Assembly: GCA_964385645.1 (NCBI GenBank)
Contig: CAYLPT010000072.1
Span: 4,207 to 68,206 of the forward strand
DNA: 64,000 nt
Reading direction: 5' to 3'
DNA from: an uncultured bacterium
GTDB taxonomy: Bacteria; Armatimonadota; Hebobacteria; Hebobacterales; Hebobacteraceae
The notes beneath the pieces were generated by a model. It searched no databases and was not told the DNA's origin. It worked only from the letters and a program-made list of their open reading frames with translations. Below are positions 17,959 through 50,337 of the stretch, one piece after another. Positions within the stretch are counted from its first letter, which is position 1. The number at the start of each line of letters is the position of its first letter. A program made the translations under genes and the position numbers.

Positions 17959-19077
17959 TCAAGCGTGTTCGGCGGCGGCGAACCAGCGTTGGGTTCGCAC
18001 GCACACCCGCACCAGCATCAGCATGACCGGAACCTCAATCAGCACCCCGACCACCGTCGCCAGGGCGGCGCCGGAGCCCAGGCCGAAGAGCATGGTGGCG
18101 GTGGCGATGGCGACCTCGAAGTGGTTCGACGCGCCGATCATCGCCGAGGGAGCCGCGTCCCCATACGTGAAGCGCAGCAGGCGCGCCGCCGAGTAGGTGA
18201 TCCCGAAGATCAGCCAGGTCTGGATGAAGAGGGGGATGGCGATCCAGAGGATGGTCAGCGGATTGCCGAGGATGGTGTCGCCCTTGAGGGAGAACAGCAG
18301 CACCAGCGTCCCCAGCAAGGCGATGATTGATACCGGCGTGAGATAGTGCAGGAACTTGGTCGCGAACCAGAGGGGACCCTTGGCGGCGAGGACCCACTTG
18401 CGGGTGAAATAGCCGGCCACCAGGGGGAGGGCGACGTAGATGCCCACAGACAGCAGCAGCGCCTGCCAGGGAACGGGCATCTCGTTCACCCCCAGCAGCC
18501 ACCCGCCCAGCACCCCATAGAGCAGCAGCATGGTCAGCGAGTTGATCGCCACCATTACCAGGGTGTGCCCCTGGTTGCCGTTCGCCAGGTACCCCCACAC
18601 CAGCACCATGGCGGTGCAGGGCGCGATGCCCAGCAGGATGGCGCCGGAGATGTAGGAGCGGAACAGCTCCACCTGCGTGCCGTCCTTGACCACCTCGGTG
18701 CCAGGCACCAGGTCACGGAACAGGTAGCCGAGGAAGGCGGTGGCGATGGCGAACATGGTGAAGGGCTTGATCGCCCAGTTGACCACCAGCGTGAGCAGCA
18801 CGGGCCTCAGGTTCTTGCCGGCCCGGACCACCTCGGCGAAGTCAATCTTCACCATGATGGGGTACATCATGAAGAAGAGCGCGATGGCGATGGGGATGGA
18901 CACGACGGGCGCATCCCCCACGTAGATCGCCATGCCGTCCAGGGCCCTCGCCAGGCCCGGGACGAGCCTGCCCAGCCCGATGCCGCAGCCGATGCAGAGC
19001 ACTACCCACAGCGTCAGGTATCTCTCGAAGACATTGAGGCCTTTGGGCTGGCTGGCAGCGGCCGACGAAGCCGTCAC
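17959..19077 (-). CDS. acr3: arsenite efflux transporter ACR3
   Basis: 372 aa from GTG 19075-77 (GGGGAGGTGAG SD). [23 protein letters not shown]...[13 protein letters not shown]...[10 protein letters not shown] is the typical ACR3 family sequence. The upstream 57 codons of the track ORF are rejected. Confidence 0.9.
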
Positions 19078-19147
19078 CGGCTCACCTCCCCTGGGGCGAT
19101 AGATGGGCCAATGTACATATGAACATGTGTCCGGCAGCCAAGGACCG

Positions 19148-19507
19148 TCAGGGGCACCGGACCATGGCCCCCTTCTCGCGCGGACGCAGGCTCCGCGACA
19201 GCCGGCGCTCGTCCAACCGTGCGGCCGGCTCCTGCGCAACGCAGTCACACGCGGCCTCGAGCAGCGCGCGCTCGGGCGCGGAGAGAGAGGACGCCAGCAT
19301 GTAGTGCATCCACTTGCCCTGGCGCCAGTCGCTCACCACCCCCGCGGCCTTGAGCACCCCGAGGTGTCGGGACACACGGTACTGCGGCAGGTCGAGCGCG
19401 TCCACAATCTCGCAGACGCACAGCTCCTCGCGGCCCCGCAGCAGCCGGCAGATGCGCAGCCGCGTGGGATCCGCGAGCGCCTTGGTGAGCTGCACCGCTC
19501 GGATCAT
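19148..19507 (-). CDS. arsR: ArsR family transcriptional regulator (ELCVCE metalloid-site type)
   Basis: 119 aa from ATG 19505-07. [48 protein letters not shown]. Confidence 0.9.
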
Positions 19508-19511
19508 GGGG

Positions 19512-19630: not shown

Positions 19631-19659
19631 TTGACTTGACGTGGAGGGCATGATACCAT
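19631..19659 (+). promoter_or_regulatory. candidate sigma70-type promoter of the giant-FtsX operon
   Basis: TTGACT (19631-36), 17 nt spacer, TACCAT (19654-59) with TGa extended -10. Located 55 nt upstream of ATG 19714. Confidence 0.4.
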
Positions 19660-19713
19660 CCCCGGATGGGGGGGGGTGGAGAGTCGCCGGAACACAGTGC
19701 AGGAGGGGTAGTG

Positions 19714-22700
19714 ATGGTCAAGGCAACACTCCGGCGGGCGCTGATCGCCTCTGTTGGCGGCTTCCTGCTGCTGGCGATCGCGGGTGGGTCGCCCTGCCTC
19801 GGCGCATTGGGCAAGAAGGAGCCCACTCCGGAGCAGAAGGAGTGGTGGGGCGCCTTCTCCAGGGAGGTCAAGCAGTCCGAGCTCGAGCGCCACATGGAGG
19901 CGCTCAGTTCGTTCCAGCCCCGGCTGGCCGGCTACCCGGGGGCCCAGCAGGCAGCCGAGTACATCGTCGGGGAGCTCCAGAAGCTGGGCCTCAAGGATGT
20001 GAGCCGGGGCGGCCTCGAGGAGTACAAGGAGCCCTACCGCGAGGCCTTCTGGGTGACGGTGCCGTGGGTATGGGGGGAGCCGTCACTGGAGGTCGTGCAG
20101 GACGGCCGGCCGGTGCGCAGCTTCCGGCTCTACCCGCTCTGGCCCAACGTGGTGCGGACCTCGCACCTGCCCAGGGGCGGCCAGAGCTACCCGCTGATCT
20201 ACGGGGGCGAGGGGAGGCTGGCGGAGTTCAGCGGCAAGGACATCGCGGGCACCGCGGTGCTGATGGAGTTCAACTGCGGCTCGAACTGGCTCAACGCCCC
20301 CCGCCTCGGGGCGGAGGCGGTGATCTTCATCGAGCCGGAGACGACGACCCGGGGCGAGGCGGAGGCGAAGTTCCTCCGCATCCCCATCAACATCCCCCGC
20401 TTCTGGATCGGGCGCAGCGACGCCTACGAGCTGCTGGCCCTGCTCAAGTCCCGACCCGAGGTGACGGTGCACATCGAGTGCAACATGACGTGGGAGCGCA
20501 AGCCCGCCTGGAACGTCGTGGCGGAGATCCCCGGCACCGACCCCGAGCTGAGCAAACAGGCCGTCTATCTCACCGCCTACTACGACTCGATGTCCATCGT
20601 GCCTGAGCTCTCGCCGGGCGCGGAGAGCACGGCCGGCGCGGCGAGCCTGCTGGAGATCACGCGCATCCTCTCCCAGCATCCCCCGAAGCGCACGGTGCGC
20701 GTCATCTTCAACGGCGCCCACTTCCTGGGGCTGGCGGGGATCCGCAACTACATCGCCAACCACCTGGACGACCTGATCGAGGGCCAGCCGGTGCGGGTCA
20801 CCAGGAGGTTCCTCGGGCTGATCCCCTACCGGAGGACGGTCCGGGAGAAGATGAACATCAACCTCTTCCTGGCCTTCGACCTCTCGACGAACCACGACCG
20901 GGTGGGGGTGTTCTACAAGGGGATGTTCTACGACCAGCGCGAGGACATGGACATCAGCCGCCAGTTCTCGGACTTCGCGCGCACCCTGCGGGAGAACGCC
21001 CAGCTCATGGCCGACTGGGGCACGACGGTGGGCTTCAGCAGCGCCTCCGGGCAGTTCGCCGACGGCGTCAACCCCATCTACGGCAAGCCCTGGCGGACCT
21101 TCATCTTCGGCAAGATCGCCCTCGACAACGAGCCCGTCACCCTCGGCGGAGGCCGGGGGGCGGCCTTCGTGACCACCGACGACGCCCGCGCCCTGGTGGA
21201 CACGCCCTTCGACACCATCGAGCACGTCAACTTCCGGAACCTCTACCGCCAGACCTGCTTCCTGGCGGCCACCATGTGGGATATCGTCAATGACCCCAAG
21301 ATGCCGGTGGACCGGGACCCGCAGTTCTCCCGCATGATGGTCTCGGGCGGCTTCGCCGAGGTGACGGTCAACGCGCTCGCCTTCGATCCCACCAGGAGCA
21401 TCGTGGCGGACAAGGTCGTGGACGGGACCATGGTGGTGGCGCGCATGTCGGACTCCACGCTCATGGGCACCCGGGGCGACCTGGTGGAGATCGTGGACGA
21501 GAAGGGGCAGGCCAAGTTCTGGGGCTACCCCACCATCAACGCCTACGGGTGGCGCAAGCCCAGCTTCATCGAGGCCTACCACACCGACCCGGAGACCGGC
21601 CACATTGACTACGCGCCCGACTGGGGGCCGATGGCGAACCGCAACTACCCCCGGGACCCGACCCAGTTCTTCATCACCAGCGGCCGGAGGGAGTTCACGC
21701 TGGTGCTGTTCGACTGCGTCCCCCTGGCGCTGTACGACCTGGTGGACCCCCAGAGCCTGACCACGCTGCGCTACATCAAGGTGTTCGACGGCATGACCGA
21801 CGCCGAGCCCCGCCGCTACGGCGTGACCATCCCCCGCCCGGAGCCCTGGCGAGGGCACGTCGAGGATGTGGCCCTGATCTTTGTGGACCCCGGCCACCGG
21901 GTGAAGGTGATGATGGGCCTGGGGCCGGGCTCGGTGCGGATGTTGCTGCTGAACGCCGAGACCATCAGCAAGGAGAACCCGAGCGGGCTGGGCTACTTGG
22001 TTGATCGGCCCATGGCCCTCGCCCGCACCCCCCTGCACGTCACGGAGGACATGTGGACCCTGGACGAGCTGCGCATGCAGAAGCTGGCGGGCTTCCGCAT
22101 CGTCAACGACATCGTGTGGGAGCACCACAGCCGGGCGGAGGAGCTGCTCGGGGAGGCGCGGGAGGCGCTCGCCCAGAGGGACTACGAGCTGTCCGACGCG
22201 AAGGCCCGCGCGGCCTGGGGCTACGAGGCGAGGGCCTACCCGGCCGTGCTCTCCACCATGAACGACGTCGTGAAGGGCGTGCTGTTCTACCTCGCCCTCA
22301 TGTTGCCCTTCGCCTTCTTCGTGGAGCGGCTCATCTTCGCGTTCCCGAACCTGCGGCTGCAGATCGTGGGCTTCGTGGGCATCTTCGTGGTCATCTGCGT
22401 GATCTTCGCCTTCATCCACCCGGCCTTCGAGATCACCAACAACCCCTGGATCGTACCCCTGGCATTCATCATGCTCGCCCTGAGCATCCTCGTCATCACC
22501 CTGGTGACCATGAAGTTCGAGGCCCAGCTCAAGGCCCTGCAGATGAAGGTCTCGGGGGTGCACCGCGCGGACATCGGGCGCATGGGCGTGGCTGCGGCGG
22601 CCTTCTCGCTGGGGATCAGCAACATGCGCAAGCGCCGCGCGCGGACCGTCTTCACCTGCCTCACGCTGGTGCTGCTCACCTTCACCGTGTTGTCCTTCAC

Positions 22701-24348
22701 CTCGGTGGAGACGGCGACCCGCTACAACGAGCGTCGGGCCCGGGGCGAGCCCCGCTACCAGGGGCTGCTGGTGCGCAACGCGATGTGGGAGCCCCTGGAG
22801 GAGTCGGCCTATCGGGTGCTCAACGACGAGTTCGGGCGCACCCGGGCGGTGGCCCCAAGGGCCTGGTTCTTCACCTCGAAGTGGGAGGAGCAGTCGTTCA
22901 TCCAGGTGAGCACCTCGGCGAGCGAGGCCACCTACGACGCCCGCGCGGTGACCGGCCTGTCCCCGGCCGAGGTGGAGGTGACCCGGCTGGATGAGGCCCT
23001 GGTGGCGGGGCGCTGGTTCCGGCCCGGCGATGTCCACGCGGCGATCATCCCGACCCGCATGGCCGAGCACTTCCGCATCAGCCCCAGGGACATCGGCCAG
23101 GTGCAGATCTTCCTGGGCGGCGTGCCCTACGAGCTGATCGGCATCATCAACTCCAGCCACGCCCGGCGCATCGTGGACCTGGACCAGGAGCCCCTGACCC
23201 CCGTGGACTGGATCCAGATGCAGCGCATGCAGCGCCAGGGCCAGGGCCAGCAGGCCGGGGGGCAGGACCGGGGCTTCCAGGAGTATCTGCACCTCTCGCC
23301 CGACCAGGTGGTGTTCGTCCCCTTCCAGACTGCGCTGAACCTGGGGGCTGAGGTGCAGTCGGTGGCGGTCAGCTTCGTGACGCCCGATGAGGTGAAGGAG
23401 ACGCTGCGGGCGCTGATGCCCCGCCTGGGCTTCAACCTCTACGCGGGCACCGGGGACGAGATCCGCAAGTGGAGCGCCATCGGGCGCACCTCCATCGTGG
23501 GCATGGGCGACCTGCTCATCCCTATCCTGATCGCGGCCCTCATCGTCCTCAACACCATGCTGGGCGCGGTCTACGAGCGGGTGCGGGAGATCCACATCTT
23601 CAGCTCCATCGGGCTGGCGCCCAACCACATCGCCATGCTGTTCATGGCGGAGTCCTTCGTCTACGCCATCCTGGGCGCCATCTTCGGCTACCTGGTGGGG
23701 CAGGGGACGGCGAAGGCGATCGTCGCCCTCGATCTGCTCTCTGGGCTCTATCTGAACTACTCCTCGGTGTCCGCGGTGGCCTCGACCTCCGTGGTGATCG
23801 GCGTCGTGCTCCTGTCCACCCTCTACCCGGCCCGCAAGGCCTCCGAGGTGGCGACGCCGGCCATCGAGCGGCGCTGGCAGGTGCCGGAGCCGGTGGGCGA
23901 CACCTGGGACATCCCCCTGCCCTTCGCGGTGACGGGGGAGCAGGCGACCGCACTGACCCGCTTCATGGTGGAGTGGTTCGAGGCCTATGAGGAATACTCG
24001 ATCGGCGACTTCGTGACCCAGGACGTGCGCTCGTGGGAGGAGGAGGCCGAGTACGGCACCTCCTACATGATCGAGACCATGGCCTGGGTGGCGCCCTTCG
24101 ACCTCGGCGTCAGCCAGAAGGTCCGCCTGGAGACGATCCCGACGGACATGGAGGACGTCTTCGAGATCAGACTGCATCTCGAGCGCGTCAGCGGCGACGT
24201 CTCATCCTGGCGCCGCGTCAACCGACGCTTCCTGAACACCCTGCGCAAGCAGTTCCTGATCTGGCGAACCCTGCGCGCCGAAGACCGGGACCGCTACCTT
24301 GGGCTCCGGCCGGCGGCCGCGGGACCGGCGGCAGAGGCCGCGTCGTAG
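19714..24348 (+). CDS. giant membrane protein: degenerate M28-peptidase/PA-domain ectodomain fused to FtsX (MacB-type) ABC permease plus C-terminal soluble domain
   Basis: 1544 aa from ATG 19714 (AGGAGGGG SD). Signal anchor MVKATLRRALIASVGGFLLLAIAG. M28/PA-like blocks: AEYIVGELQKLGL, AVLMEFNCG...LGAEAVIFIE, WNVVAEIPG, LTAYYDSMS, PGAESTAGAASLLEITR and VIFNGAHFLGLAG. FtsX blocks: RTVFTCLTLVLLTFTVL...large loop...LNTMLGAVYERVREIHIFSSIGLAPNHIAMLFMAESFVYAILGAIFGYLVG. Confidence 0.8.
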   Translation: MVKATLRRALIASVGGFLLLAIAGGSPCLGALGKKEPTPEQKEWWGAFSREVKQSELERHMEALSSFQPRLAGYPGAQQAAEYIVGELQKLGLKDVSRGGLEEYKEPYREAFWVTVPWVWGEPSLEVVQDGRPVRSFRLYPLWPNVVRTSHLPRGGQSYPLIYGGEGRLAEFSGKDIAGTAVLMEFNCGSNWLNAPRLGAEAVIFIEPETTTRGEAEAKFLRIPINIPRFWIGRSDAYELLALLKSRPEVTVHIECNMTWERKPAWNVVAEIPGTDPELSKQAVYLTAYYDSMSIVPELSPGAESTAGAASLLEITRILSQHPPKRTVRVIFNGAHFLGLAGIRNYIANHLDDLIEGQPVRVTRRFLGLIPYRRTVREKMNINLFLAFDLSTNHDRVGVFYKGMFYDQREDMDISRQFSDFARTLRENAQLMADWGTTVGFSSASGQFADGVNPIYGKPWRTFIFGKIALDNEPVTLGGGRGAAFVTTDDARALVDTPFDTIEHVNFRNLYRQTCFLAATMWDIVNDPKMPVDRDPQFSRMMVSGGFAEVTVNALAFDPTRSIVADKVVDGTMVVARMSDSTLMGTRGDLVEIVDEKGQAKFWGYPTINAYGWRKPSFIEAYHTDPETGHIDYAPDWGPMANRNYPRDPTQFFITSGRREFTLVLFDCVPLALYDLVDPQSLTTLRYIKVFDGMTDAEPRRYGVTIPRPEPWRGHVEDVALIFVDPGHRVKVMMGLGPGSVRMLLLNAETISKENPSGLGYLVDRPMALARTPLHVTEDMWTLDELRMQKLAGFRIVNDIVWEHHSRAEELLGEAREALAQRDYELSDAKARAAWGYEARAYPAVLSTMNDVVKGVLFYLALMLPFAFFVERLIFAFPNLRLQIVGFVGIFVVICVIFAFIHPAFEITNNPWIVPLAFIMLALSILVITLVTMKFEAQLKALQMKVSGVHRADIGRMGVAAAAFSLGISNMRKRRARTVFTCLTLVLLTFTVLSFTSVETATRYNERRARGEPRYQGLLVRNAMWEPLEESAYRVLNDEFGRTRAVAPRAWFFTSKWEEQSFIQVSTSASEATYDARAVTGLSPAEVEVTRLDEALVAGRWFRPGDVHAAIIPTRMAEHFRISPRDIGQVQIFLGGVPYELIGIINSSHARRIVDLDQEPLTPVDWIQMQRMQRQGQGQQAGGQDRGFQEYLHLSPDQVVFVPFQTALNLGAEVQSVAVSFVTPDEVKETLRALMPRLGFNLYAGTGDEIRKWSAIGRTSIVGMGDLLIPILIAALIVLNTMLGAVYERVREIHIFSSIGLAPNHIAMLFMAESFVYAILGAIFGYLVGQGTAKAIVALDLLSGLYLNYSSVSAVASTSVVIGVVLLSTLYPARKASEVATPAIERRWQVPEPVGDTWDIPLPFAVTGEQATALTRFMVEWFEAYEEYSIGDFVTQDVRSWEEEAEYGTSYMIETMAWVAPFDLGVSQKVRLETIPTDMEDVFEIRLHLERVSGDVSSWRRVNRRFLNTLRKQFLIWRTLRAEDRDRYLGLRPAAAGPAAEAAS

Positions 24349-24417
24349 CGACCGGCAAGGGCGAGAGCGCCGGACTCCGGCCGCGAACAGCGAGCTGGAG
24401 ACCATAATGGAAGGTAG

Positions 24418-26472
24418 GTGAGCGCGTTGGAGGAGCGGGAGCAGGAGGCCGGGACGCCGAGTCCCGCCGAGCAGGCCGCGCCGGACTGGTACTCGGCCCG
24501 CAGGCCGGAGCTGGAGCCGACCGAGTTCCGAGAGGGCTTCACCCTCAGGACCGTGCTGGGGGCGCTGTTCCTGGGCATCATCATGCTGCCCGGCTCGATC
24601 TACCTGGGGCTCATGATGGGGCAGGGCATGGGCCCCGCCGGACAGTGGACGACCATCATCCTGTTCACGGAGGTGGCCCGGCGGTCCTTCACCAGGCTCA
24701 GCCGCCAAGAGCTGTACATGATCTACTACATGGCGGGCAGCCTGCTGTGGATGGCAGGGGGCACCGCGCTCGCGGGGGGCATCTTCGCTTGGGCGGTCTG
24801 GAACGCGTACCTGGTCAACTCCCCGGCCGCCCGCAACTTCGGCATCGCCGACCAGATCCCCAGATGGGTGGCCCCCCCGCTGGGCTCTACCGCCTATATC
24901 GAGCGCACCTTCTTCCACCCCGACTGGACGTTCCCCGTGGTGCTGCTCGTGCTCGGGAACATCTTCGGGCGCATGCAGTGGATCGGGATGGGCTACTTCC
25001 TCTTCCGCACCACCTCCGACGTGGAGCGCCTGCCCTTCCCCATGGCCCCCATCGCCGCCCAGGGCGCCACCGCGCTCGCCGAGGTCTCCGAGGAGAAGGA
25101 GTCCTGGCGCTGGCAGGTCTTCAGCATCGCCACCGTGATCGGCCTCGTCTACGGCTTCTTCTACGTGGCGGTGCCGGTGATCACCGGCGGCTTCCTCGCC
25201 GACCCCCTGACGCTCATCCCCATCCCCTTCCTGGACCTCACCGCCAATGCCGAGGACGCCTTCCCGACCGCCCGCATCGGCATCTTCACCGACCTCGCCC
25301 CGATCTTCTACGGCTTCGTGCTGCCGTTCCCCATCGTGGTGGGCGGGTTCATCACCTCGATGTTCACCAACTTCGTGTTCTCGCCCACGCTGTTCCGCCT
25401 GAACCCTGACCTGTTCCCCACTTGGTCGAAGGGGATGAACCTCATCCAGAGCGAGATGACCCTCGGCTTCGACCTCTACATGAGCACCGGCATCGGCGTC
25501 GCGCTGGCGATCGCCGTGGTGGGCATCTTCACCGTGGTGCGCACCACTATCCAGGGCCGCATCGCGCGGGCGAGGGGCGCTACCCAGGTGAGGGGCTATG
25601 GCGACATCCCGGCCGGGAGGGGGGACTTCCCGATCTGGCTCGCGCTGCTCGCCTGGGCGGTCCCCGCGGGCGGCTACGTCGTGCTCTGCCATGTCCTCGT
25701 GCCCAGGTTCCCCATCTACTGGTTCGTCGCGCTGGCGTTCGTGTGGACCCCGCTGATCTCCTATATGTCGGCCCGCATGATCGGGTTCACCGGCCAGCCC
25801 CTGAACATCCCCTACGTGCAGCAGGCGGTCTACATACTCAGCGGCTACCAGGGCGTTGACATCTGGTTCGCGCCGCTCCCGATCGGCGACCATGGCTGGG
25901 CGGCTGCGCAGTTCCGCGAGGTCGAGCTCACGGGTACGCGCATCAGGAGCGTCATCAAGGCCGAGGCCTTCCTGTTCGTGCTCATCACCGTATGCAGCTT
26001 CGCCTACTGGTCCTTCTTCTGGCGCACCAGCCAGATCCCGTCCTCCCAGTACCCCTACGCCCAGACCTTCTGGCCCCTGAGCGCGTTCTGGCAGTGCCTG
26101 TGGGTCTCGTCAACCGACCCGACCCGGGCCGGGGAGGCCACCTTCCTGCTGAAGGCGGTGAAGTTCCCGGTGATCGGCTATGCGGGCGGGGCCGCGCTGG
26201 CGCTCTACGTCGCGCTGGCGGCGCTGAGGGTGCCGGCCCTGTGGTTCTACGGGCTGGCGGGCGGCTTCGGGGTGGCGACCACGTGGGCCATACCCACCTT
26301 CATCGGCGCCATGCTGGGGCGCTACTACTTCGCCCGGCGCCTCGGGCGGGAGCGCTGGCGGCGCTACACCCCGGTGCTGGCCGCCGGTTACGCGGCCGGC
26401 GTCGGGCTGATCGGCATGGCGGCGATCGGCATGACCATCATCTTCCGGGCGGTGCGCTCGCTGCCCTTCTAG
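24418..26472 (+). CDS. polytopic membrane protein, OPT (oligopeptide transporter) superfamily-like
   Basis: 684 aa, GTG start with GGAAGG SD, at least 14 predicted TM. N-terminus FTLRTVLGALFLGIIMLPGSIYLGLMMGQGMG...QELYMIYYMAGS resembles the OPT-family N-terminal pattern. The assignment is by eye only. Confidence 0.45.
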   Translation: MSALEEREQEAGTPSPAEQAAPDWYSARRPELEPTEFREGFTLRTVLGALFLGIIMLPGSIYLGLMMGQGMGPAGQWTTIILFTEVARRSFTRLSRQELYMIYYMAGSLLWMAGGTALAGGIFAWAVWNAYLVNSPAARNFGIADQIPRWVAPPLGSTAYIERTFFHPDWTFPVVLLVLGNIFGRMQWIGMGYFLFRTTSDVERLPFPMAPIAAQGATALAEVSEEKESWRWQVFSIATVIGLVYGFFYVAVPVITGGFLADPLTLIPIPFLDLTANAEDAFPTARIGIFTDLAPIFYGFVLPFPIVVGGFITSMFTNFVFSPTLFRLNPDLFPTWSKGMNLIQSEMTLGFDLYMSTGIGVALAIAVVGIFTVVRTTIQGRIARARGATQVRGYGDIPAGRGDFPIWLALLAWAVPAGGYVVLCHVLVPRFPIYWFVALAFVWTPLISYMSARMIGFTGQPLNIPYVQQAVYILSGYQGVDIWFAPLPIGDHGWAAAQFREVELTGTRIRSVIKAEAFLFVLITVCSFAYWSFFWRTSQIPSSQYPYAQTFWPLSAFWQCLWVSSTDPTRAGEATFLLKAVKFPVIGYAGGAALALYVALAALRVPALWFYGLAGGFGVATTWAIPTFIGAMLGRYYFARRLGRERWRRYTPVLAAGYAAGVGLIGMAAIGMTIIFRAVRSLPF

Positions 26473-26491
26473 CGAGGGCCGGTGGTCACGC

Positions 26492-27427
26492 TTGAGGCGA
26501 GATCAGGACTTCCAGACGATCGGATGGCAGGCAATCTCGGTGCGAGTCCCGGCGGACTGGACGCTGGCCGCGGTAGGGGGTGACCGACGAAAGGGCTACC
26601 TCAGACTCGACGACCAGTATCTGCCCCGGCTCCAGGTGAAGTGGGCGGCCGCGCACGTCAAGCTGGACGAGAGGCTCGCCGAGTACGCCAAGCAGCTCAC
26701 GACCGGCCGGCGCAGGCGCCCCACCGGCCTGGAGGTGGACACGGGCGCCAAGTTCCTCAGCCAGCGTGCGAAGCCCGGCAAGGAGCTGCGCACCTTCGCC
26801 TGGCGGGGCCGAGAGTGTGGGCTGGGTGTGCTGTGGAACTGCCAGGTCTGCGGGCGCGCCACCATCGCCCAGGCGAGCTGGCGCCAGGAGGAGAGGCTCC
26901 ACGACGCAGCGCTGGCGGCGCTCAAGTCACTGGAGGACCACGGCGAGGGCGGCTGGGAAGCGTGGGGCATGGATGGCTTCGCCTTCCTCGCCCCCGAGGG
27001 CTACCATCTCGCCGGGTGGCGTCGGCTGACCCGGTACCTGGAGTTCTCGCTGGAGCGCGGCGGCGCGCGACTGAAGGCCGCCCGCTGGGGCATGGTGCCG
27101 CTGGTGCTCCAGGGGCGCTCGGTCGAGGAGTGGTACCGGGAGACGAACCAGGGCCGGCGGGACGTGAGCTGGCATACGCAGGGCATGCAGATCAAAGGAC
27201 ACGAGGGGGCGGCGGCCTGGGGCGAGCGGCGCCGCCTCGCCGGCCGGCTGCGCCGGCGTGTTGCAGAGGCGCTGCGGCGCCGGCCGCCCCTGGACTTCGC
27301 TGCCGTGGCCTGGCACTGCCCGGCGGCCAATCGGCTCTACCTGGTCGAGAGCGTGCATGCGGGCGGCGGCGAGGCGTTCGCTGGGGTCGTGGACTCGATC
27401 GCCTGCCACGCCGGCGGCGATGGCTAG
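26492..27427 (+). CDS. hypothetical soluble protein (no recognised family)
   Basis: 311 aa, TTG start as given by the track (start uncertain). Arg/Trp-rich with one CQVCG. Two similar beta-like segments: ISVRVPADWTLAAVGG..GYLRLDD..LQVKW and FAFLAPEGYHLAGWRRLTRYLEFSLERGGARLKAARW. Confidence 0.5.
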   Translation: MRRDQDFQTIGWQAISVRVPADWTLAAVGGDRRKGYLRLDDQYLPRLQVKWAAAHVKLDERLAEYAKQLTTGRRRRPTGLEVDTGAKFLSQRAKPGKELRTFAWRGRECGLGVLWNCQVCGRATIAQASWRQEERLHDAALAALKSLEDHGEGGWEAWGMDGFAFLAPEGYHLAGWRRLTRYLEFSLERGGARLKAARWGMVPLVLQGRSVEEWYRETNQGRRDVSWHTQGMQIKGHEGAAAWGERRRLAGRLRRRVAEALRRRPPLDFAAVAWHCPAANRLYLVESVHAGGGEAFAGVVDSIACHAGGDG

Positions 27428-27447
27428 GGGCGGGAAAACCTGTGAGG

Positions 27448-27825
27448 ATGCTGAGGCGAAGGCCGCGCCTGACCCCGGAGCAAGTGCTGCGGTCGCGCCC
27501 GGTGAGGAATCAGGCGGTGAAGAGCGAACCGACGGAGGACGGGGGGATACGGCTGACGATCGGCCGGCGCACCGACTGGTGGGCGCGGGCGCTGGCGGTG
27601 GTGTTCCCGATCCCGCGGCAGCGACATATCGAGCTGGATGCCGTGGGGGCAGAGGTGTGGAGGCTGTGTGACGGCGAAAACAGGCTCCGGGATATGATCC
27701 GGGCTCTGGCGGAGCGGCACAAGCTGACGCGGGCGGAGGCGGAGTGGTCGCTGCGCACCTACCTGAGGGACCTGGGCAAGCGGGGGCTGGTGGGATTCGC
27801 GGTGGAGAAGCCAGAAGGGGAGTAA
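27448..27825 (+). CDS. PqqD-family / RiPP-recognition-element-like protein
   Basis: 125 aa from ATG 27448 (in frame within the long spurious track ORF 26641-27825). IELDAVGAEVWRLCDGENRLRDMIRALAERHKLTRAEAEWSLRTYLRDLGKRGLV fits the PqqD winged-helix pattern. Confidence 0.7.
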   Translation: MLRRRPRLTPEQVLRSRPVRNQAVKSEPTEDGGIRLTIGRRTDWWARALAVVFPIPRQRHIELDAVGAEVWRLCDGENRLRDMIRALAERHKLTRAEAEWSLRTYLRDLGKRGLVGFAVEKPEGE

Positions 27826-27841
27826 CAGGGAGAGGAAGCGC

Positions 27842-28531
27842 ATGGCAGGAGTGATCGAGCAGGCGGGCCGGGAGCGAGGCATCCAGCGCCAGATCGTTCT
27901 CCCCTGGTCGCGGGCGCTGCAGATGACCCGGGAGAACATCTTCGTGCGCATCGGCCGGTCGGTGATCACCGCGCTGGGCATCTTCCTCGGGCTGGCGTTC
28001 ATGAGCGCGGTGCTCTTCGGCGCGGCGGCGATGCGGGTGCAGGCCCGCATCCACGAGCAGACGATCGGGCTGGTCGAGGACCCGGTGGTGGAGATGCAGG
28101 CGCGCACCATCTGGCTGGTGGCGATGTCGCTGCTGGTGGCCACCGTGGGGATCGTGAACTCGATGCTGATGTCGGTCACGGAGCGGTACAAGGAGATCGG
28201 CACGATGAAGTGCCTGGGCGCGCTCGACAGCTTCATCGTGCGCCTGTTCATCCTGGAGGCGATCCTGCTGGGGATCCTGGGCTCCATCCTGGGGACCATC
28301 GTGGGCGTGGGGCTCATGACCCTGGCGCGCGCGCCGGCGATCGGTTGGTCGGGCGTGCTCGGGGCGTGGGGGGAGGTGGCAGTGGTGCTGGGGTCGTGGG
28401 AGATCCCGCTGTGGCTGGGGATCATCCTGGGCATCCTGGTCGGCGGGCTGCTGTCGGTCCTGGCGGCGCTCTACCCCGCCTGGCGGGCGGCGAAAATGCC
28501 GCCCGCGGCGGCGCTGCGCTCTGAGTTCTAG
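27842..28531 (+). CDS. short FtsX-family ABC permease (minimal extracytoplasmic loop)
   Basis: 229 aa, GGGAGAGGAAG SD. TM1 VITALGIFLGLAFMSAVLFG, a loop of only ~30 aa, then VNSMLMSVTERYKEIGTMKCLGALDSFIVRLFILEAILLGILGSILG and C-terminal LYPAWRAAKMPPAAALR. Confidence 0.85.
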   Translation: MAGVIEQAGRERGIQRQIVLPWSRALQMTRENIFVRIGRSVITALGIFLGLAFMSAVLFGAAAMRVQARIHEQTIGLVEDPVVEMQARTIWLVAMSLLVATVGIVNSMLMSVTERYKEIGTMKCLGALDSFIVRLFILEAILLGILGSILGTIVGVGLMTLARAPAIGWSGVLGAWGEVAVVLGSWEIPLWLGIILGILVGGLLSVLAALYPAWRAAKMPPAAALRSEF

Positions 28532-28546
28532 ATAGGGAGGCTGTGC

Positions 28547-29293
28547 ATGTCTACATCGGTCTACGAGTACATCGTCCGCACCAAGGACCTCTCCAAGGTC
28601 TATATGATGGGCGGCACCGAGGTGCGAGCGCTGGAGGACGTGGAGCTCGACATCCGCCGCGGCGAGTACGTGTCCATCATGGGCCCCTCCGGCTCGGGCA
28701 AGTCCACCCTGTTCAACATGATCGGGGGCCTCGACAAGCCCACGCGGGGCACGGTGTTCATTGACGAGGTGGACATGGCACAGCTCGACGCCTTCGAGCT
28801 CGCCTGGCTCCGGTGCCGCAAGATCGGCTACATCTTCCAGACCTTCAACCTGATCCCGGTGATGACCGCCCTCGAGAACGTCACCCTGCCCATGGTCTTC
28901 GCCGGCCTCACCACCGACCAGGCCCTCGACAAGGGCGTCGAGCTGCTGCGCACCGTCGGGCTGGCCGATCGCCGCGACCACAAGCCGACCGAGCTCTCCG
29001 GCGGCCAGCAGCAGCGAGTCGCCATCGCGCGCGCCCTCGCCAACGACCCCGCCATCATCCTCGCTGACGAGCCCACCGGAAACCTCGACCTGCGCACCGG
29101 CAAGGAGATCATCACCCTCCTCAAGCAGATGAACGAGGACAAGAACGTCACCATCATCTCGGCCACCCACGACCTCAAGATGATTGACGTCTCCGACCGC
29201 GTGGTGTGGATCCGGGACGGCAAGATCGAGCGCATCGAGGAGCGAGCCGACATCCAGGTGCGCGTCGGCGAGATGGAGGGGGAGGAGCAGTAG
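28547..29293 (+). CDS. ABC transporter ATP-binding protein (MacB/LolD-type)
   Basis: Walker A GPSGSGKSTL, Q-loop, signature LSGGQQQRVAIARAL, Walker B IILADEPTGNLD, and an FQTFNL motif typical of the MacB/LolD clade. GGGAGG SD. Confidence 0.93.
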   Translation: MSTSVYEYIVRTKDLSKVYMMGGTEVRALEDVELDIRRGEYVSIMGPSGSGKSTLFNMIGGLDKPTRGTVFIDEVDMAQLDAFELAWLRCRKIGYIFQTFNLIPVMTALENVTLPMVFAGLTTDQALDKGVELLRTVGLADRRDHKPTELSGGQQQRVAIARALANDPAIILADEPTGNLDLRTGKEIITLLKQMNEDKNVTIISATHDLKMIDVSDRVVWIRDGKIERIEERADIQVRVGEMEGEEQ

Positions 29294-29431: not shown

Positions 29432-30031
29432 ATGAGAGCGGCGCGAGGCCACATCAGTCTTCCCTCGGCACTCCTGACGCTGTCGCTGCTGGCGCTCGTG
29501 CTGGCGGTGGGATTCGTGGTGGGCCGGGTGGTCGTCGCGAGGGCCTACCTCAAGATGATGCCCGACCTCGGCGAGCCCGCGGCCCCTGCCCCCGAGTCCG
29601 CACGCGCGGAGCCCCCCGGCGGCGCCGCCCCGGGCCGTGTCTATGTGCCGGCCCCGCCCCCGGAGCGCCCTCGCGGCGCGGAGCCGGCGGAGGCGCCGGC
29701 CCCAGCCGGAGAGGAGCCAACGGCGGAGGCGGACGGGCCGGCGGCCGCGCCGGCGCCCGCGACCGCGCCGGCCCCGCAGCCGGAGGGCCCGCCCGCCGGC
29801 GAGCGCCGCTACACCATCCAGGTGGGCGTGTTCGTGAGCCGGGAGGGCGCTCAGCAGGTGGCCGACGAGCTGACGCGGGCAGGCTTCCCGGCGCGCGTGG
29901 AGGCGGAGCGCGCGGACGACCGCACCGTCTACCGCGTGTTCACCGGCCGCTACCGGACCGACTCCGCGGCGCGCAGCGCCCTCGAGCAGCTCAAGCAGGA
30001 GGGCTTCCCGGGGTTCCTAGCCGAGCGCTGA
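29432..30031 (+). CDS. SPOR-domain (septal peptidoglycan-binding) membrane protein
   Basis: 199 aa. TM anchor, Pro/Ala-rich linker, and C-terminal RRYTIQVGVFVSREGAQQVADELTRAGFPARVE...YRVFTGRYRTDSAARSALEQLKQEGF, which is the SPOR pattern. Confidence 0.85.
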   Translation: MRAARGHISLPSALLTLSLLALVLAVGFVVGRVVVARAYLKMMPDLGEPAAPAPESARAEPPGGAAPGRVYVPAPPPERPRGAEPAEAPAPAGEEPTAEADGPAAAPAPATAPAPQPEGPPAGERRYTIQVGVFVSREGAQQVADELTRAGFPARVEAERADDRTVYRVFTGRYRTDSAARSALEQLKQEGFPGFLAER

Positions 30032-30064: not shown

Positions 30065-30724
30065 GTGAGGGACATACGGAACGACGACAGCGAGCCGCAG
30101 GCGCCAGACCAGCGCGACACCCAGGGCGACCCTGAGGGCGCGCCCGGGCCGCTGGCCGAAGAGATCGCCCCGGCCGAGGAGGAGCCTGAGGAGGAGGAAG
30201 CGCGGCGGGAGGAATCCGAGGTGGAGGTCCTGCAGAAAGAGCTGGCCCTGTTGGAGGGGCAGCTCAGGGACATGCGGGACCGCTACATCCGAGCAGTGGC
30301 CGACCTGGACAACGCGCGCAAGCGTGCGCGGCAGGAGATCGCCGAGGCGCGAAAATCGGCGGCGGCGAGCGTCATACTGGACGTGCTGGGGATCGTTGAC
30401 AACCTCGAGCGCGCCCTGGAGACGGCCCAGGCCGGCCCCGAGGCCCCGGAGCAGACCAGGGCGGTGTATGAGGGCGTGTCCCTGATCTACCGGCAGTTCA
30501 TGGATGCGCTGGAGCGCCGGGGCGTCAAGCCCATCCGCGCGCTGGGCGAGCGCTTCGACCCCAAGTATCACGAGGCGGTGGCCCAGGTGCCGGCGAGCGG
30601 CGATCAGCGGGACGGCACTATCGCGCTGGAGATGCAGAGGGGATACCTGATGGGCGACCGGGTGCTCCGGCCCAGCCGAGTGGGGGTCGTGGTGCGGGAG
30701 GCGGGGGACAAGCAGGCCGGGTGA
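30065..30724 (+). CDS. grpE: nucleotide exchange factor GrpE
   Basis: 219 aa, GTG start. RDRYIRAVADLDNARKRARQE...VLDVLGIVDNLERAL...FDPKYHEAV...GYLMGDRVLRPSRVGV. Confidence 0.92.
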   Translation: MRDIRNDDSEPQAPDQRDTQGDPEGAPGPLAEEIAPAEEEPEEEEARREESEVEVLQKELALLEGQLRDMRDRYIRAVADLDNARKRARQEIAEARKSAAASVILDVLGIVDNLERALETAQAGPEAPEQTRAVYEGVSLIYRQFMDALERRGVKPIRALGERFDPKYHEAVAQVPASGDQRDGTIALEMQRGYLMGDRVLRPSRVGVVVREAGDKQAG

Positions 30725-30956
30725 TGGGCGGGGAGAGGGAAGGCCGCCAGACCGTCGAAGAGGACGCCCGGGCGGCGGGCGACGGGCGGAGGATGGTGAG
30801 AGAGGTCGCGTTGTGGTATCTTCAAGGAGAAAGCGACGCCGGGCGAACTCGCCCGAGGAGCCGAAGGAGCAGGTGAACGCGGTAGGCGGGGAAGGGCAGC
30901 CGGAGGCGCCCGGGCGAGAGGTTGAGGCCCCGATGCTGAGAGAGGGAGGAACTCCT

Positions 30957-32009
30957 ATGTCGAGCCAGCAGGCGGCCGACGCGAGGCATGCGGTGATCCG
31001 GGTGATCGGCATCGGCGGGGCCGGCAGCAATGCCGTGGACCGGATGGTGGAGGCCGGGCTCAAGGGGGTGGAGTTCGTGGCCGCGAACACGGATCTCCAG
31101 GCCCTCGCCCGCTCCCGGGCCACAACCAAGCTCCAGCTCGGTGCTCAGGTGACCAATGGGCTGGGCGCCGGGGGCGACCCCGAGGTCGGGGCGCGGGCGG
31201 CGGAGGAGAGCCGGTCGGAGATCAAGGGGGTGCTGGAGGGGGCCGACATGGTCTTCATCACCGCCGGCATGGGGGGCGGCACTGGGACCGGCGGCGCCCC
31301 CACGGTCGCGGAGGTGAGCCGCGAGGTCGGGGCGCTGACGGTGGCCGTGGTCACGAAGCCCTTCGCCTTCGAGCGGGGCCGGCGGCAGGCCATCGCCGAC
31401 GAGGGGCTGGACAACCTGCGCACCAAGGTGGACACGCTCATCACTGTGCCGAACGACCGCTTGCTGGGCGTGGTGCAGAAGAAGGTCACCCTGCTCGACG
31501 CCTTCCGCCTCGCCGACGAGGTGCTGCGGGAGGGCGTTCAGGGCATCTCCGACCTGATCACCATCCCCGGGCTCATCAACCTCGACTTCGCCGACGTGAA
31601 GACGGTCATGCAGGACGCCGGCACCGCGCTGATGGGCATCGGCGTAGGCAGCGGCGAGACGCGGGCCTCTGACGCCGCGCAGGCCGCCATCTCGAGCCCG
31701 CTGCTCGAGAGCTCCATTGACGGGGCGACCCGGATCCTGTTCAACATCACCGGCGGCGGCGACTTGTCTCTCTCCGAGGTCGAGGAGGCCGCGCAGGTTA
31801 TCCGATCCGCCTCCGATTCGCCGGACACCAACGTCTTGTTCGGCGTCGTCATCGCCGAGGAGCCGAGAGAGGAAGTCCGCATCACCGTCCTCGCCACGGG
31901 CTTCGAGCGGGGCCGCCGGTCGGCCAAGGGCGAGGGGCGGGGGCTGCCCGCGGCAGAGCCCGTCCCCGATGCCGACCTCGAGGTGCCTACCTTCCTGCGC
32001 AACCGCTAG
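30957..32009 (+). CDS. ftsZ: cell division protein FtsZ
   Basis: 350 aa from ATG 30957 (GGGAGGA SD). IRVIGIGGAGSNAVDRM, GLGAGGDPEVG, FITAGMGGGTGTGGAP, and the C-terminal peptide DLEVPTFLRNR. The track ORF start at 30813 is probably too far upstream. Confidence 0.95.
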   Translation: MSSQQAADARHAVIRVIGIGGAGSNAVDRMVEAGLKGVEFVAANTDLQALARSRATTKLQLGAQVTNGLGAGGDPEVGARAAEESRSEIKGVLEGADMVFITAGMGGGTGTGGAPTVAEVSREVGALTVAVVTKPFAFERGRRQAIADEGLDNLRTKVDTLITVPNDRLLGVVQKKVTLLDAFRLADEVLREGVQGISDLITIPGLINLDFADVKTVMQDAGTALMGIGVGSGETRASDAAQAAISSPLLESSIDGATRILFNITGGGDLSLSEVEEAAQVIRSASDSPDTNVLFGVVIAEEPREEVRITVLATGFERGRRSAKGEGRGLPAAEPVPDADLEVPTFLRNR

Positions 32010-49299: not shown

Positions 49300-49356
49300 A
49301 GGCCGGAGGCGGGCGGCCCGGGGGCGCCTCGGGCCGCCCGCGCGCGGGGGAGTGCT

Positions 49357-50337
49357 ATGGCTGCGGACGTCATCATCGAGGTGCGAGGGCTGGCCAAGCG
49401 CTTCGGCGGCGTGCAAGCGGTGGCCGGGGTGGATTTCGACGTCCGGGCCGGGGAGCTGTTCGGCTTCCTGGGGCCGAACGGCGCAGGCAAGACCACGACC
49501 ATCAACATGCTCACGGGCCTGGCGCGGCCAGACGCCGGCACGATCCGGATCGCCGGCATAGACTGCTCGGCCGACCCGAAGGCCGCGCAGCACCTGGTCG
49601 GCACCGTTCCAGACGAGACGAACCTCTACCCCGAGCTGACAGGCTTCGAGAACCTGAGCTTCTGCGCCGCGCTGTATGGGATGCGGCGGGCCCCGCGAGA
49701 GGCCCGGGCGCGGGAGCTGCTGGAGAGCTTCGGCCTGGGGGAGGCGGCCGACCGCAAGTTCGGCGGCTACTCCAAGGGCATGAAGCGCAGGCTCACGCTG
49801 GCCGCGGGCATAGTCCACCAACCCCAGATTCTGTTCCTGGACGAGCCGACCACCGGCATTGACGTCGCCAGCGCGCGGCAGATCCGCCAGCTCATCGCCG
49901 ACCTGCACCGCCGCGGCACCACCATCTTCCTGACTACCCACTACATCGAGGAGGCCGAGCGGCTCTGCGATCGGATCGCCTTCATCGTCGCCGGCCGCAT
50001 CGTGCGCACCGATTCCGTGGCCGCGCTCATGCAGGAGACCGAGGGCCAACACGCGGTGGAGTTCGCGCTGTCGGGCGAGGCCCGACAGGTGTGCGGAGTG
50101 CTCGAGGAGGCGCTCCCAGGGCTCTCGTGCCGGCTCGTCTCCGATGGGCGGCTCCGGGTGGAGGCCGCCTGGCCGGTGCCCATCGGCCCCATCGTGCGCC
50201 TGCTGGAGGAGCGCGGCCTCGAGGTGGAGGAGGCGCGCAAGGTGCGCCTGTCCCTGGAGGAGGTGTTCGTGCGGGTGACGGGCATTGAGGCGGCGGCCAT
50301 GCAGCGGGAGCGGGAGAAGGCGGGGGCCGGGCCATGA
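49357..50337 (+). CDS. ABC-2-type (DrrA-like) transporter ATP-binding protein
   Basis: 326 aa. GFLGPNGAGKTTT, YSKGMKRRLTLA and ILFLDEPTTGID. Confidence 0.92.
   Translation: MAADVIIEVRGLAKRFGGVQAVAGVDFDVRAGELFGFLGPNGAGKTTTINMLTGLARPDAGTIRIAGIDCSADPKAAQHLVGTVPDETNLYPELTGFENLSFCAALYGMRRAPREARARELLESFGLGEAADRKFGGYSKGMKRRLTLAAGIVHQPQILFLDEPTTGIDVASARQIRQLIADLHRRGTTIFLTTHYIEEAERLCDRIAFIVAGRIVRTDSVAALMQETEGQHAVEFALSGEARQVCGVLEEALPGLSCRLVSDGRLRVEAAWPVPIGPIVRLLEERGLEVEEARKVRLSLEEVFVRVTGIEAAAMQREREKAGAGP

Follow-up and report, generated by a model that had tools for sequence, protein, structure and literature searches.

The window analysed here is a stretch of 64,000 nucleotides from an uncultured Armatimonadota bacterium of the class Hebobacteria (assembly GCA_964385645.1, contig CAYLPT010000072.1), with a G+C content of about 70%. 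It contains an operon of six genes, termed g1 to g6, which encodes a membrane machine that is conserved across the Armatimonadota and is uncharacterised. The machine is a variant of the known ATP-binding cassette (ABC) systems of type VII and does not represent a class of its own: two permeases of the FtsX family, of which the giant protein g1 carries a very large extracytoplasmic domain and the mini-permease g5 almost none, are encoded together with an ABC ATPase (g6), a predicted OPT-fold transporter (g2) and two further proteins (g3 and g4). The reading that is tentatively favoured is an ATP-driven machine that would capture or gate a peptide-like ligand and hand it over to an OPT importer. 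A first-pass annotation, made from the letters of the sequence, had described the cluster and had proposed that a heterodimer of the two permeases drives a built-in pseudo-peptidase. The observation was confirmed, and the interpretation was supported in part.

Six open reading frames (ORFs) were found on the plus strand (Table 1), and the gaps between them from g1 to g6 are 69, 19, 20, 16 and 15 nt, which exactly reproduces the co-directional arrangement with gaps of 15 to 69 nt reported before. Five of the six starts are preceded by a clear Shine-Dalgarno-like motif, and the TTG start of g3 by a weak one (GGTGG). The genes are real, because full-length homologues of the cluster proteins are known at 50-83% identity; for g1 homologues in this range are numerous, and named homologues assign the window to the Armatimonadota. 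Both promoters claimed by the first-pass annotation were found again, at positions 19631 and 29328, and they match the boundaries of the operon. However, these two are all promoter-like sites between 17 and 31 kb of the window, shuffled sequence yielded 1.1 +/- 1.1 sites, and the count alone is thus no evidence. No precursor-peptide ORF, riboswitch or other RNA element was found in the leader or in the gaps of the operon.

The topology of g1 proposed earlier, i.e., an anchor, an ectodomain of about 820 residues, three transmembrane (TM) segments, an FtsX module and a tail, was recovered by a hydropathy scan. The scan placed the N-terminal signal or anchor at residues 8-30, the ectodomain at about 31-850 and the three TM segments at 851-937. 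The FtsX part follows with TM1 at 976-1000, a loop at 1001-1257 and TM2-4 at 1258-1373, and the tail comprises residues 1374-1544. The Pfam family FtsX (PF02687) matched residues 1269-1377 with 47.8 bits against a cut-off of 25.5. The family MacB_PCD (PF12704), which describes the periplasmic core domain (PCD), matched many homologues of g1, but not the protein of the window itself. A profile built from 33 g1 homologues matched YtrF, LolF, MacB and LolC in the PDB with its FtsX part. Some g1 homologues are labelled "antimicrobial peptide transport system permease" at JGI.

The second permease, g5, was matched by the FtsX family with 70.4 bits (cut-off 25.5), and the hydropathy scan revealed four TM segments and a loop of about 20 residues, in agreement with its earlier description as an FtsX protein with almost no ectodomain. 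The large extracytoplasmic domain between TM1 and TM2 is thus present in g1 (257-aa loop) and absent from g5. TM2-4 of g5 are closest to LolF, YtrF and LolE, and BceB was not among the matches. Both permeases contain an ER..EI coupling-helix motif, and in NCBIfam both are nearest to LolC/E, ADOP and MacB permeases, with no curated cut-off reached.

The three additional TM segments of g1 could have been the remnant of a second FtsX module, as in the tandem permeases YbbP and ADOP. This was ruled out, because the N-terminal TM segment together with the three-TM block gave an hhalign probability of only about 1% against FtsX, whereas the FtsX module of g1 aligned with g5 at 97.9% as the positive control. 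Exactly one FtsX module is therefore present in each permease, as expected for the giant/mini pair that had been claimed. Since the three-TM block is not a degenerate FtsX, the operon codes for two FtsX modules, only the first of which has an ectodomain, and for a single nucleotide-binding domain (NBD), and a heterodimer with the composition g1:g5:(g6)2 would therefore be the most economical stoichiometry. The NBD is g6, which was matched by ABC_tran with 123.9 bits and had LolD and the MacB NBD as its best NCBIfam matches. Walker A, Q-loop, LSGGQ signature, Walker B and H-loop are all intact in the translation, in accordance with the proposed MacB/LolD-type ATPase. The scores nevertheless remained below the LolCDE cut-offs of NCBIfam (lolCE 22 bits for g1 and 69 bits for g5 versus 362, LolD 233 versus 307.75), and the equivalog cut-off for MacB was missed as well. 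A second, unrelated ABC ATPase gene is located at 49351-50052 (+); its product is 29% identical to g6, and the window holds no other paralogue of the six genes.

The most unusual part of g1 is its ectodomain, for which blocks similar to M28 peptidases and PA domains had been claimed. Both were corroborated. Peptidase_M28 of Pfam matched residues 267-350 with 38.7 bits against a cut-off of 21.3, covering the N-terminal half of the model only. As for the PA domain, residues 152-355 could be aligned to 2EK8, an aminopeptidase that contains one, and precomputed matches to PF02225 exist for homologues. The profile of the 33 homologues matched 2EK8 with an E value of 4e-20, and further matches were YwaD, which likewise has a PA domain, and AAP as well as the transferrin receptor TfR1 and nicalin. 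Residues 536-850 had no Pfam or PDB match and were unrelated to the PCD, to g3, to g4 and to the g1 tail.

To characterise the active site, g1 was aligned to YwaD and 2EK8, and the respective columns were tabulated in 33 and then in 57 orthologues, which represent every gene arrangement. The first His ligand of M28 enzymes is replaced by Tyr or Phe (Tyr289 in the window), and the bridging Asp by Ser, Asn, Ala, Gly or Gln, with Asp retained once (Ser305 in the window). The general-base Glu is replaced by His336, which is invariant in all 57 proteins, and the adjacent Glu ligand by Phe, His, Gly, Tyr or Cys (Phe337 in the window), so that some lineages have His-His at positions 336-337. The last His ligand is Asp496 in 56 of the 57 orthologues. 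In total, four of the five canonical ligand positions and the general base are changed, and the remaining ligand, the equivalent of Asp179, could not be mapped in the alignment. Canonical M28 catalysis is excluded, because these replacements extend across all 57 orthologues.

The first-pass annotation had called the peptidase "dead". The loss of the canonical catalytic and metal-binding residues was found in 57 of 57 orthologues, but the word itself is too strong, because positions of the pocket are conserved. Glu304, Asp291 and Asp500 are invariant or nearly so in orthologues that are otherwise 30-60% identical, and the substituted positions are themselves (nearly) invariant (Glu304, His336, Asp496), which indicates a site that has been re-tooled and has not decayed. 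The site is thus non-canonical, and it may or may not be dead. The closest parallels are the transferrin receptor and nicalin, which also contain an M28-like domain with a PA or apical insert that has lost the metal ligands, and which both use it for binding. Unlike these two proteins, the ectodomain of g1 is bacterial and forms one chain with an ABC permease, and the substituted positions of its active site are invariant in turn, suggesting a defined new pocket.

Such a pocket could also be enzymatic. According to this alternative, the ectodomain would be a re-tooled metallo-hydrolase, e.g., with a mononuclear site formed by Glu304, His336 and Asp496, and would process a substrate in the periplasm or outside of the cell, the OPT protein would import the products, and the ABC part would position or activate the enzyme. 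The (near-)invariance of Glu304, His336, Asp291, Asp496 and Asp500 and the His-His pair of some lineages fit this alternative well, and single-metal enzymes of the M28 fold exist, e.g., glutaminyl cyclase. It is also in line with the frequent linkage of prokaryotic OPT genes to peptidase genes. The change of four of the five ligand positions and of the general base, the restriction of the Pfam match to one half of the model and the similarity to the non-catalytic transferrin receptor and nicalin argue against it, and a hydrolase is regarded as unlikely, even if it is the rival that survives best.

The protein g2 is the most conserved one of the cluster. It had been called OPT-like, and a search with the OPT model (PF03169) had been suggested as a check. 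This check failed for the protein of the window, for which no match was obtained even at E<=10, and g2 had no sequence match in Pfam, NCBIfam or the PDB, either alone or as a profile. However, four of 35 members of the g2 family did match PF03169 (best E value 7e-8), and the fold supported the earlier call. An AlphaFold (AF2) model based on a multiple sequence alignment reached a pLDDT of 83 and a pTM of 0.82, and its sole significant match in the PDB was Yellow Stripe 1 of barley (HvYS1, 7WST/7WSR), over the full length, with an E value of 1e-11 and TM-scores of 0.58-0.67. On a rough reading, the helix pattern of the model broadly fits the 16 transmembrane segments described for OPT proteins (PMC3061005). 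Judged by this model, g2 has the OPT/YSL fold. The model, the PF03169 matches within the family and the name "peptide transporter", which NCBI gives to some homologues, together place g2 in the OPT superfamily.

All prokaryotic OPT members fall into the YSL branch, and the members with known function are cation-coupled uptake symporters (PMC3061005). For the prokaryotic proteins, which are often encoded next to peptidases, peptide uptake has been predicted from the gene context, and a survey of 2011 contained no characterised prokaryotic member (PMC3061005). The protein g2 differs from other OPT/YSL proteins (TC 2.A.67) in that its sequence is too divergent for PF03169 and that its gene strictly adjoins a type VII permease gene in Armatimonadota. 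Two g2 paralogues were found in a single metagenome-assembled genome (MAG), UWMA-0252 (loci L019 and L033), one adjoining g1 and the other not. The family therefore has g1-linked and free-standing copies also within the Armatimonadota.

A scan with one genome per species detected relatives of g2 in 492 genomes, and the gene arrangement was counted for the best 80 loci and four others. In 71 of 83 loci g2 follows g1 directly, and this adjacency holds down to about 30-40% identity of g1, with unrelated flanks. The full order g1-g6 (arrangement A) was present in 29 loci. In 13 loci (arrangement B) g5-g6 have moved upstream of g1, in one case as g4-g5-g6 (L084); g4 is absent from 12 of these loci, and g3 is sometimes found 3-4 kb downstream. 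In 11 loci (arrangement C), including that of the cultured Abditibacterium utsteinense, g1-g2 stand alone within +/- 8 kb, and g2 alone was seen in nine loci, which belong to MAGs labelled Gemmatimonadota, Latescibacterota or Zixibacteria and to unlabelled ones. The genes g5 and g6 are always adjacent. Of the 53 loci that allowed a judgement, 42 have them together with g1, on its downstream side or as the block moved upstream. In three divergent loci the same six genes occur in the same order between unrelated flanks.

The first-pass annotation had treated the six genes as one unit. Their co-conservation in the same order with unrelated flanks agrees with this, and the genes for the giant FtsX, the OPT-like, the PqqD-like and the mini-FtsX proteins do co-occur across genomes, which it had proposed as a check, but the unit is not uniform, as the 11 loci with g1-g2 alone and the frequent lack of g4 show. 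The evolutionary core is g1-g2, g4-g5-g6 form a mobile block, and g3 and g4 are more dispensable. The carriers comprise several classes of Armatimonadota, including Zipacnadia and Hebobacteria, as well as KD3-62, WS1, FCPU426 and some MAGs labelled Planctomycetota. The cluster was shown to be phylum-wide, vertically inherited and syntenic. A contig binned into a MAG of "Janthinobacterium lividum" (L075) has a full cluster g1-g6 of the Armatimonadota type and was probably mis-binned. Neither literature that links the components nor a characterised homologous system was found, consistent with the earlier statement that the cluster matches no characterised system.

The remaining two proteins of the operon would act in the cytoplasm. 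For g4 the claimed PqqD-like domain was verified by Pfam (44.1 bits, cut-off 23.4), and among solved structures it is closest to TbiB1 (PDB 5V1U, E value 6e-5), which binds the leader of a lasso peptide. It differs from other proteins with a PqqD domain, i.e., a RiPP recognition element (RRE; RiPP, ribosomally synthesised and post-translationally modified peptide), in that no RiPP enzyme or precursor accompanies it, that its gene is located directly upstream of the mini-FtsX gene, and that it has moved together with g5-g6 in locus L084. An apparent fusion of the PqqD and mini-FtsX genes in a long-read chromosome (L017, 11406-12542), which would have been a Rosetta-stone link, was rejected as a homopolymer indel of 1 nt. 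An independent short-read assembly of the region has one more A (CCAAAG versus CCAAG), which restores a TAA stop after g4. A sequencing indel is the most likely explanation, and the case shows that gene fusions in long-read MAGs should be taken as Rosetta-stone links only with care.

For g3 the first-pass annotation had noted no recognisable family, and this was true at the sequence level, because neither a Pfam nor a PDB sequence match was obtained. The fold, however, is recognisable as an alpha-beta-alpha sandwich of the PsbP/Mog1 type. An internal duplication was detected by hhalign (95%, E value 3e-8), and in the model (pLDDT 90) each half superposes on PsbP with E values of 4e-5 to 1e-3 and target-normalised TM-scores of 0.5-0.64; Mog1, Tsi3, MTC28/Apa and BT_1490 were matched as well. 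The protein has no signal peptide or TM segment and is therefore cytoplasmic. Its invariant residues C117-x2-C120, H150 and C305 form a Cys3-His signature that is probably a Zn site, which, together with the tandem arrangement and the cytoplasmic location, distinguishes g3 from other PsbP/Mog1 proteins. An enzymatic function was rejected, given that no sequence match was found and the fold is of the binding or scaffold type; judged by its model, g3 looks like a binder or scaffold and not like a recognisable enzyme. An exhaustive HMMER search revealed about 1,200 representative clusters (50% identity) of stand-alone g3-like proteins of about 300 aa. In the gene-caller prediction g3 begins only at residue 17 and has 295 aa. 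The TTG at position 26492 is preferred as the start, because a Trp that is conserved in the family (Trp12, in a GWQG motif) lies upstream of the start chosen by the gene callers, within window positions 26492-26540.

The cytoplasmic tail of g1 requires a separate comment. The PADLOC model "CARF_m8--CARF_LolE_TM" matched residues 803-1521 of g1 (window 22120-24276) with an E value of 1.5e-58. The portion of g1 with the three-TM block, the FtsX module and the tail therefore belongs to a family that has already been catalogued in a CARF census. A sister model, "CARF_Beta-galactosidase_LolE_TM", has a beta-galactosidase-like ectodomain, which implies that in relatives the chassis of three TM segments, FtsX module and tail carries another, exchangeable ectodomain. 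By elimination, the CARF-like part of the match should be the tail, the CARF nature of which was not confirmed: a profile of the tail matched no CARF structure in the PDB and no Pfam family, no literature support was found, and the flanks contained no cas or CBASS genes. The tail also showed no relation to g3, g4 or the PCD.

The favoured, still tentative model combines these results as follows. The permeases g1 and g5 and two copies of g6 would form a type VII (MacB/FtsX-type) ABC mechanotransducer. The ATP cycle would move the periplasmic core domain of g1 and hence the attached M28/PA-like ectodomain of about 820 residues, which has lost the di-zinc site of aminopeptidases but retains a conserved pocket and would serve as receptor or gate, the ligand being peptide-like and having a free terminus. 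This ligand would be carried into the cytoplasm by g2. There, g4 and g3 would either bind the peptide on its arrival or link its presence to the ATPase, perhaps via the g1 tail. The domain calls, the single FtsX module in each permease, the intact motifs of g6, the g1-g2 and g5-g6 linkages, the HvYS1 fold of g2, the importer function of characterised OPT members and the likeness of g4 to TbiB1 speak for this model, as do the replaced but conserved M28 site, the matches of g1 to the transferrin receptor and nicalin, the binding or scaffold fold of g3 and the precedents FtsEX-EnvC and YbbAP-TesA. A more elaborate version, in which the mechanotransducer is docked to the OPT transporter via the extra TM segments of g1, the M28/PA receptor captures a specific extracellular peptide, as signal or as substrate, and ATP gates its entry, possibly licensed by a CARF-like tail and the RRE- and PsbP-like adaptors, would be an import and sensing pathway typical of the Armatimonadota and of allied candidate lineages and appears rather improbable in its entirety.

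Several observations weigh against the favoured model. In the 11 loci of arrangement C g1-g2 are present without g5-g6 within 8 kb. The lack of g4 in these loci and in 12 of the 13 arrangement-B loci indicates that the cytoplasmic hand-off is not essential to the core function. Relatives of g2 stand alone, without g1, in other phyla, and g2 therefore does not need the machine. The conserved substituted residues may form a new catalytic centre, in which case the ectodomain would be an enzyme and not a receptor. In two lineages a SPOR gene comes after the operon, a hint of a role in the cell wall. Lastly, the CARF label on the C-terminal part of g1 would point to control by a nucleotide signal, which the model does not need. 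The rival explanations overlap in part with the favoured model.

The machine resembles type VII ABC systems in its 4-TM FtsX module, in the periplasmic core domain of MacB type that g1 carries between TM1 and TM2 and in its separate LolD/MacB-type NBD, and FtsEX-EnvC and YbbAP-TesA are precedents for driving or partnering hydrolase-like proteins. It differs from MacB, LolCDE, FtsEX and YbbAP-TesA in the M28/PA-like ectodomain, the three extra TM segments and the tail of about 170 residues of g1, in the partner permease without an ectodomain and in the linkage to an OPT transporter. The FtsEX precedent leads to a second alternative, a regulator of envelope or cell-wall remodelling. Here the ATP cycle would switch the M28-like ectodomain in an EnvC-like manner, a peptidoglycan hydrolase would be controlled by this switch, and the released muropeptide stems would be recycled by OPT and dealt with by g3 and g4 in the cytoplasm. 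The type VII architecture and the logic of a pseudo-hydrolase partner are consistent with this, as is the presence of a SPOR gene directly after g6 in the clade of the window and in KD3-62, with FtsZ 1.5 kb downstream of the cluster in the clade of the window. However, most loci lack this linkage: SPOR and FtsZ come after the cluster in the closest clade alone (L005, L006, L008, L009), and SPOR alone follows it in KD3-62 (L003). GrpE intervenes between SPOR and FtsZ, so that the neighbourhood is not a dcw-type cluster, and the linkage was set aside as evidence for a role in division. In addition, no hydrolase is conserved nearby, and the NCBIfam scores stayed below the FtsEX cut-offs (FtsX models with cut-offs of 225-255: g1 11-15 bits, g5 28-34 bits; FtsE 207 versus 264.85). 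An FtsEX-like function is considered quite unlikely.

BceB combines in one chain an FtsX module that has a large external domain with another that has none (PMC5985334), a pairing that is mirrored here by two separate genes. The machine could accordingly be a split BceAB-like system for the sensing or detoxification of antimicrobial peptides, with the ectodomain binding a peptide antibiotic or its lipid target, and the JGI label of some g1 homologues would fit. In contrast to BceAB, which has a single 10-TM permease, there is no 2-TM linker, no two-component system is encoded in the conserved flanks, and g5 is nearest to LolF, YtrF and LolE. Furthermore, the strict OPT linkage would remain unexplained, and a phylum-wide, syntenic cluster is unlike accessory resistance genes, which makes this alternative very unlikely.

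Still less likely is a RiPP-like maturation and export system, in which the PqqD domain would bind a leader, the ABC part would export the product and the peptidase-like domain would trim it. The similarity of g4 to a lasso-peptide B1 protein and the presence of both an ABC ATPase and a peptidase-like domain in its operon had to be weighed against the lack of a precursor-like small ORF in or beside the operon (gaps of 15-69 nt) and of a modifying enzyme, g3 having a PsbP/Mog1 binding fold. The peptidase-like domain no longer has the canonical site, transport of substrates across the cytoplasmic membrane is not known for type VII ABC systems, OPT members are importers, and g4 is missing in many loci. 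The least probable explanation, an anti-phage or second-messenger membrane effector in which the CARF-like tail senses a cyclic nucleotide and gates the machine, has the PADLOC match and its sister model in its favour, but is weakened by the tail profile, by the vertical and syntenic inheritance across the phylum and by the flanks of the examined loci, in none of which cas, CBASS or other defence genes were found, generic P-loop matches of g6 being the only defence-related hits besides the CARF_m8 label.

Table 1. Features of the six-gene operon and their positions in the window.
Feature	Positions	Strand	Description
Promoter candidate	19631..19659	+	sigma-70-like, TTGACT-17-TACCAT, TG-extended; in the divergent intergenic region of ~200 nt between an ArsR-like gene and g1
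g1	19714..24348	+	giant FtsX-family permease, 1544 aa; AGGAGG 8 nt 5' of ATG; gene callers give the identical 1544-aa product
g1, residues 31-535	19804..21318	+	extracytoplasmic M28-like domain with PA insert, canonical ligands replaced
g1, residues 536-850	21319..22263	+	second extracytoplasmic region and helical stalk; no detectable family
g1, residues 851-940	22264..22533	+	three-TM block, highly conserved, not FtsX-like
g1, residues 976-1377	22639..23844	+	complete FtsX/MacB-type module: TM1, periplasmic core domain of ~257 aa, TM2-4
g1, residues 1378-1544	23845..24345	+	conserved cytoplasmic tail, motifs WLAPFDLGVSQ and RKQFLIWRT
g2	24418..26472	+	polytopic secondary transporter, predicted OPT/YSL fold, 684 aa
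g3	26492..27427	+	cytoplasmic protein, predicted tandem PsbP/Mog1 fold, 311 aa; no Pfam family
g4	27448..27825	+	PqqD/RRE-like peptide-binding domain protein, 125 aa
g5	27842..28531	+	mini-FtsX permease, 229 aa; 4 TM, ~20 external residues between TM1 and TM2
g6	28547..29293	+	MacB/LolD-type ABC ATPase, 248 aa

The operon is flanked upstream by two genes on the minus strand, an SBF/ACR3-like transporter gene (17959-19248) and, preceding it, a gene for an ArsR/SmtB-type helix-turn-helix regulator with the motif CVCEIV (about 19148-19510). This divergent pair looks like an arsenite or metalloid resistance pair. Downstream of g6, the plus strand contains a SPOR-domain gene (29432-30031), GrpE (30065-30724) and FtsZ (30813-32009); GrpE was also found downstream of the cluster in locus L085. 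Unbiased clustering of all flanking ORFs over the 84 loci revealed no further universal partner, and the recurrences within sub-clades were DUF1559 pilins, a WD40 gene and an ion channel. About 15 loci have DUF1559/N-methyl (type IV pilin-like) genes near the cluster (e.g., L044 10204-11979 and L016 8889-9575), and in WS1/Zipacnadia loci these genes are located between g2 and g3. This is probably incidental, and DUF1559 genes are presumably simply abundant in these genomes. In three loci an orphan gene for an SBP_bac_1 solute-binding protein, without cognate importer permeases, immediately precedes g1 in the same orientation (L001 6879-9434, L003 8353-9690, L085 821-3372), and in L001 and L085 it is accompanied by a Rhomboid/TPR protease. 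Both were rejected as extra components, because they are confined to one clade (L001, L003, L085).

Taken together, knowledge of type VII ABC systems rests on a few proteobacterial and firmicute examples, i.e., MacB, LolCDE, FtsEX, BceAB and YbbAP. The cluster would add to these a covalently attached ectodomain with a peptidase fold, a natural split pair of permeases with and without an extracytoplasmic domain, and the first conserved genetic coupling of a type VII machine to an OPT-fold secondary transporter. It would also add cytoplasmic RRE-like and PsbP-like partners outside of a RiPP or photosystem context. Two families without a Pfam entry were defined, a divergent OPT clade (g2), with relatives in the 492 species genomes, and g3, with its about 1,200 clusters. 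The cluster is among the few multi-gene signatures that are conserved across the poorly studied Armatimonadota, and the presence of the g1-g2 core in the cultured Abditibacterium utsteinense provides a testable system.

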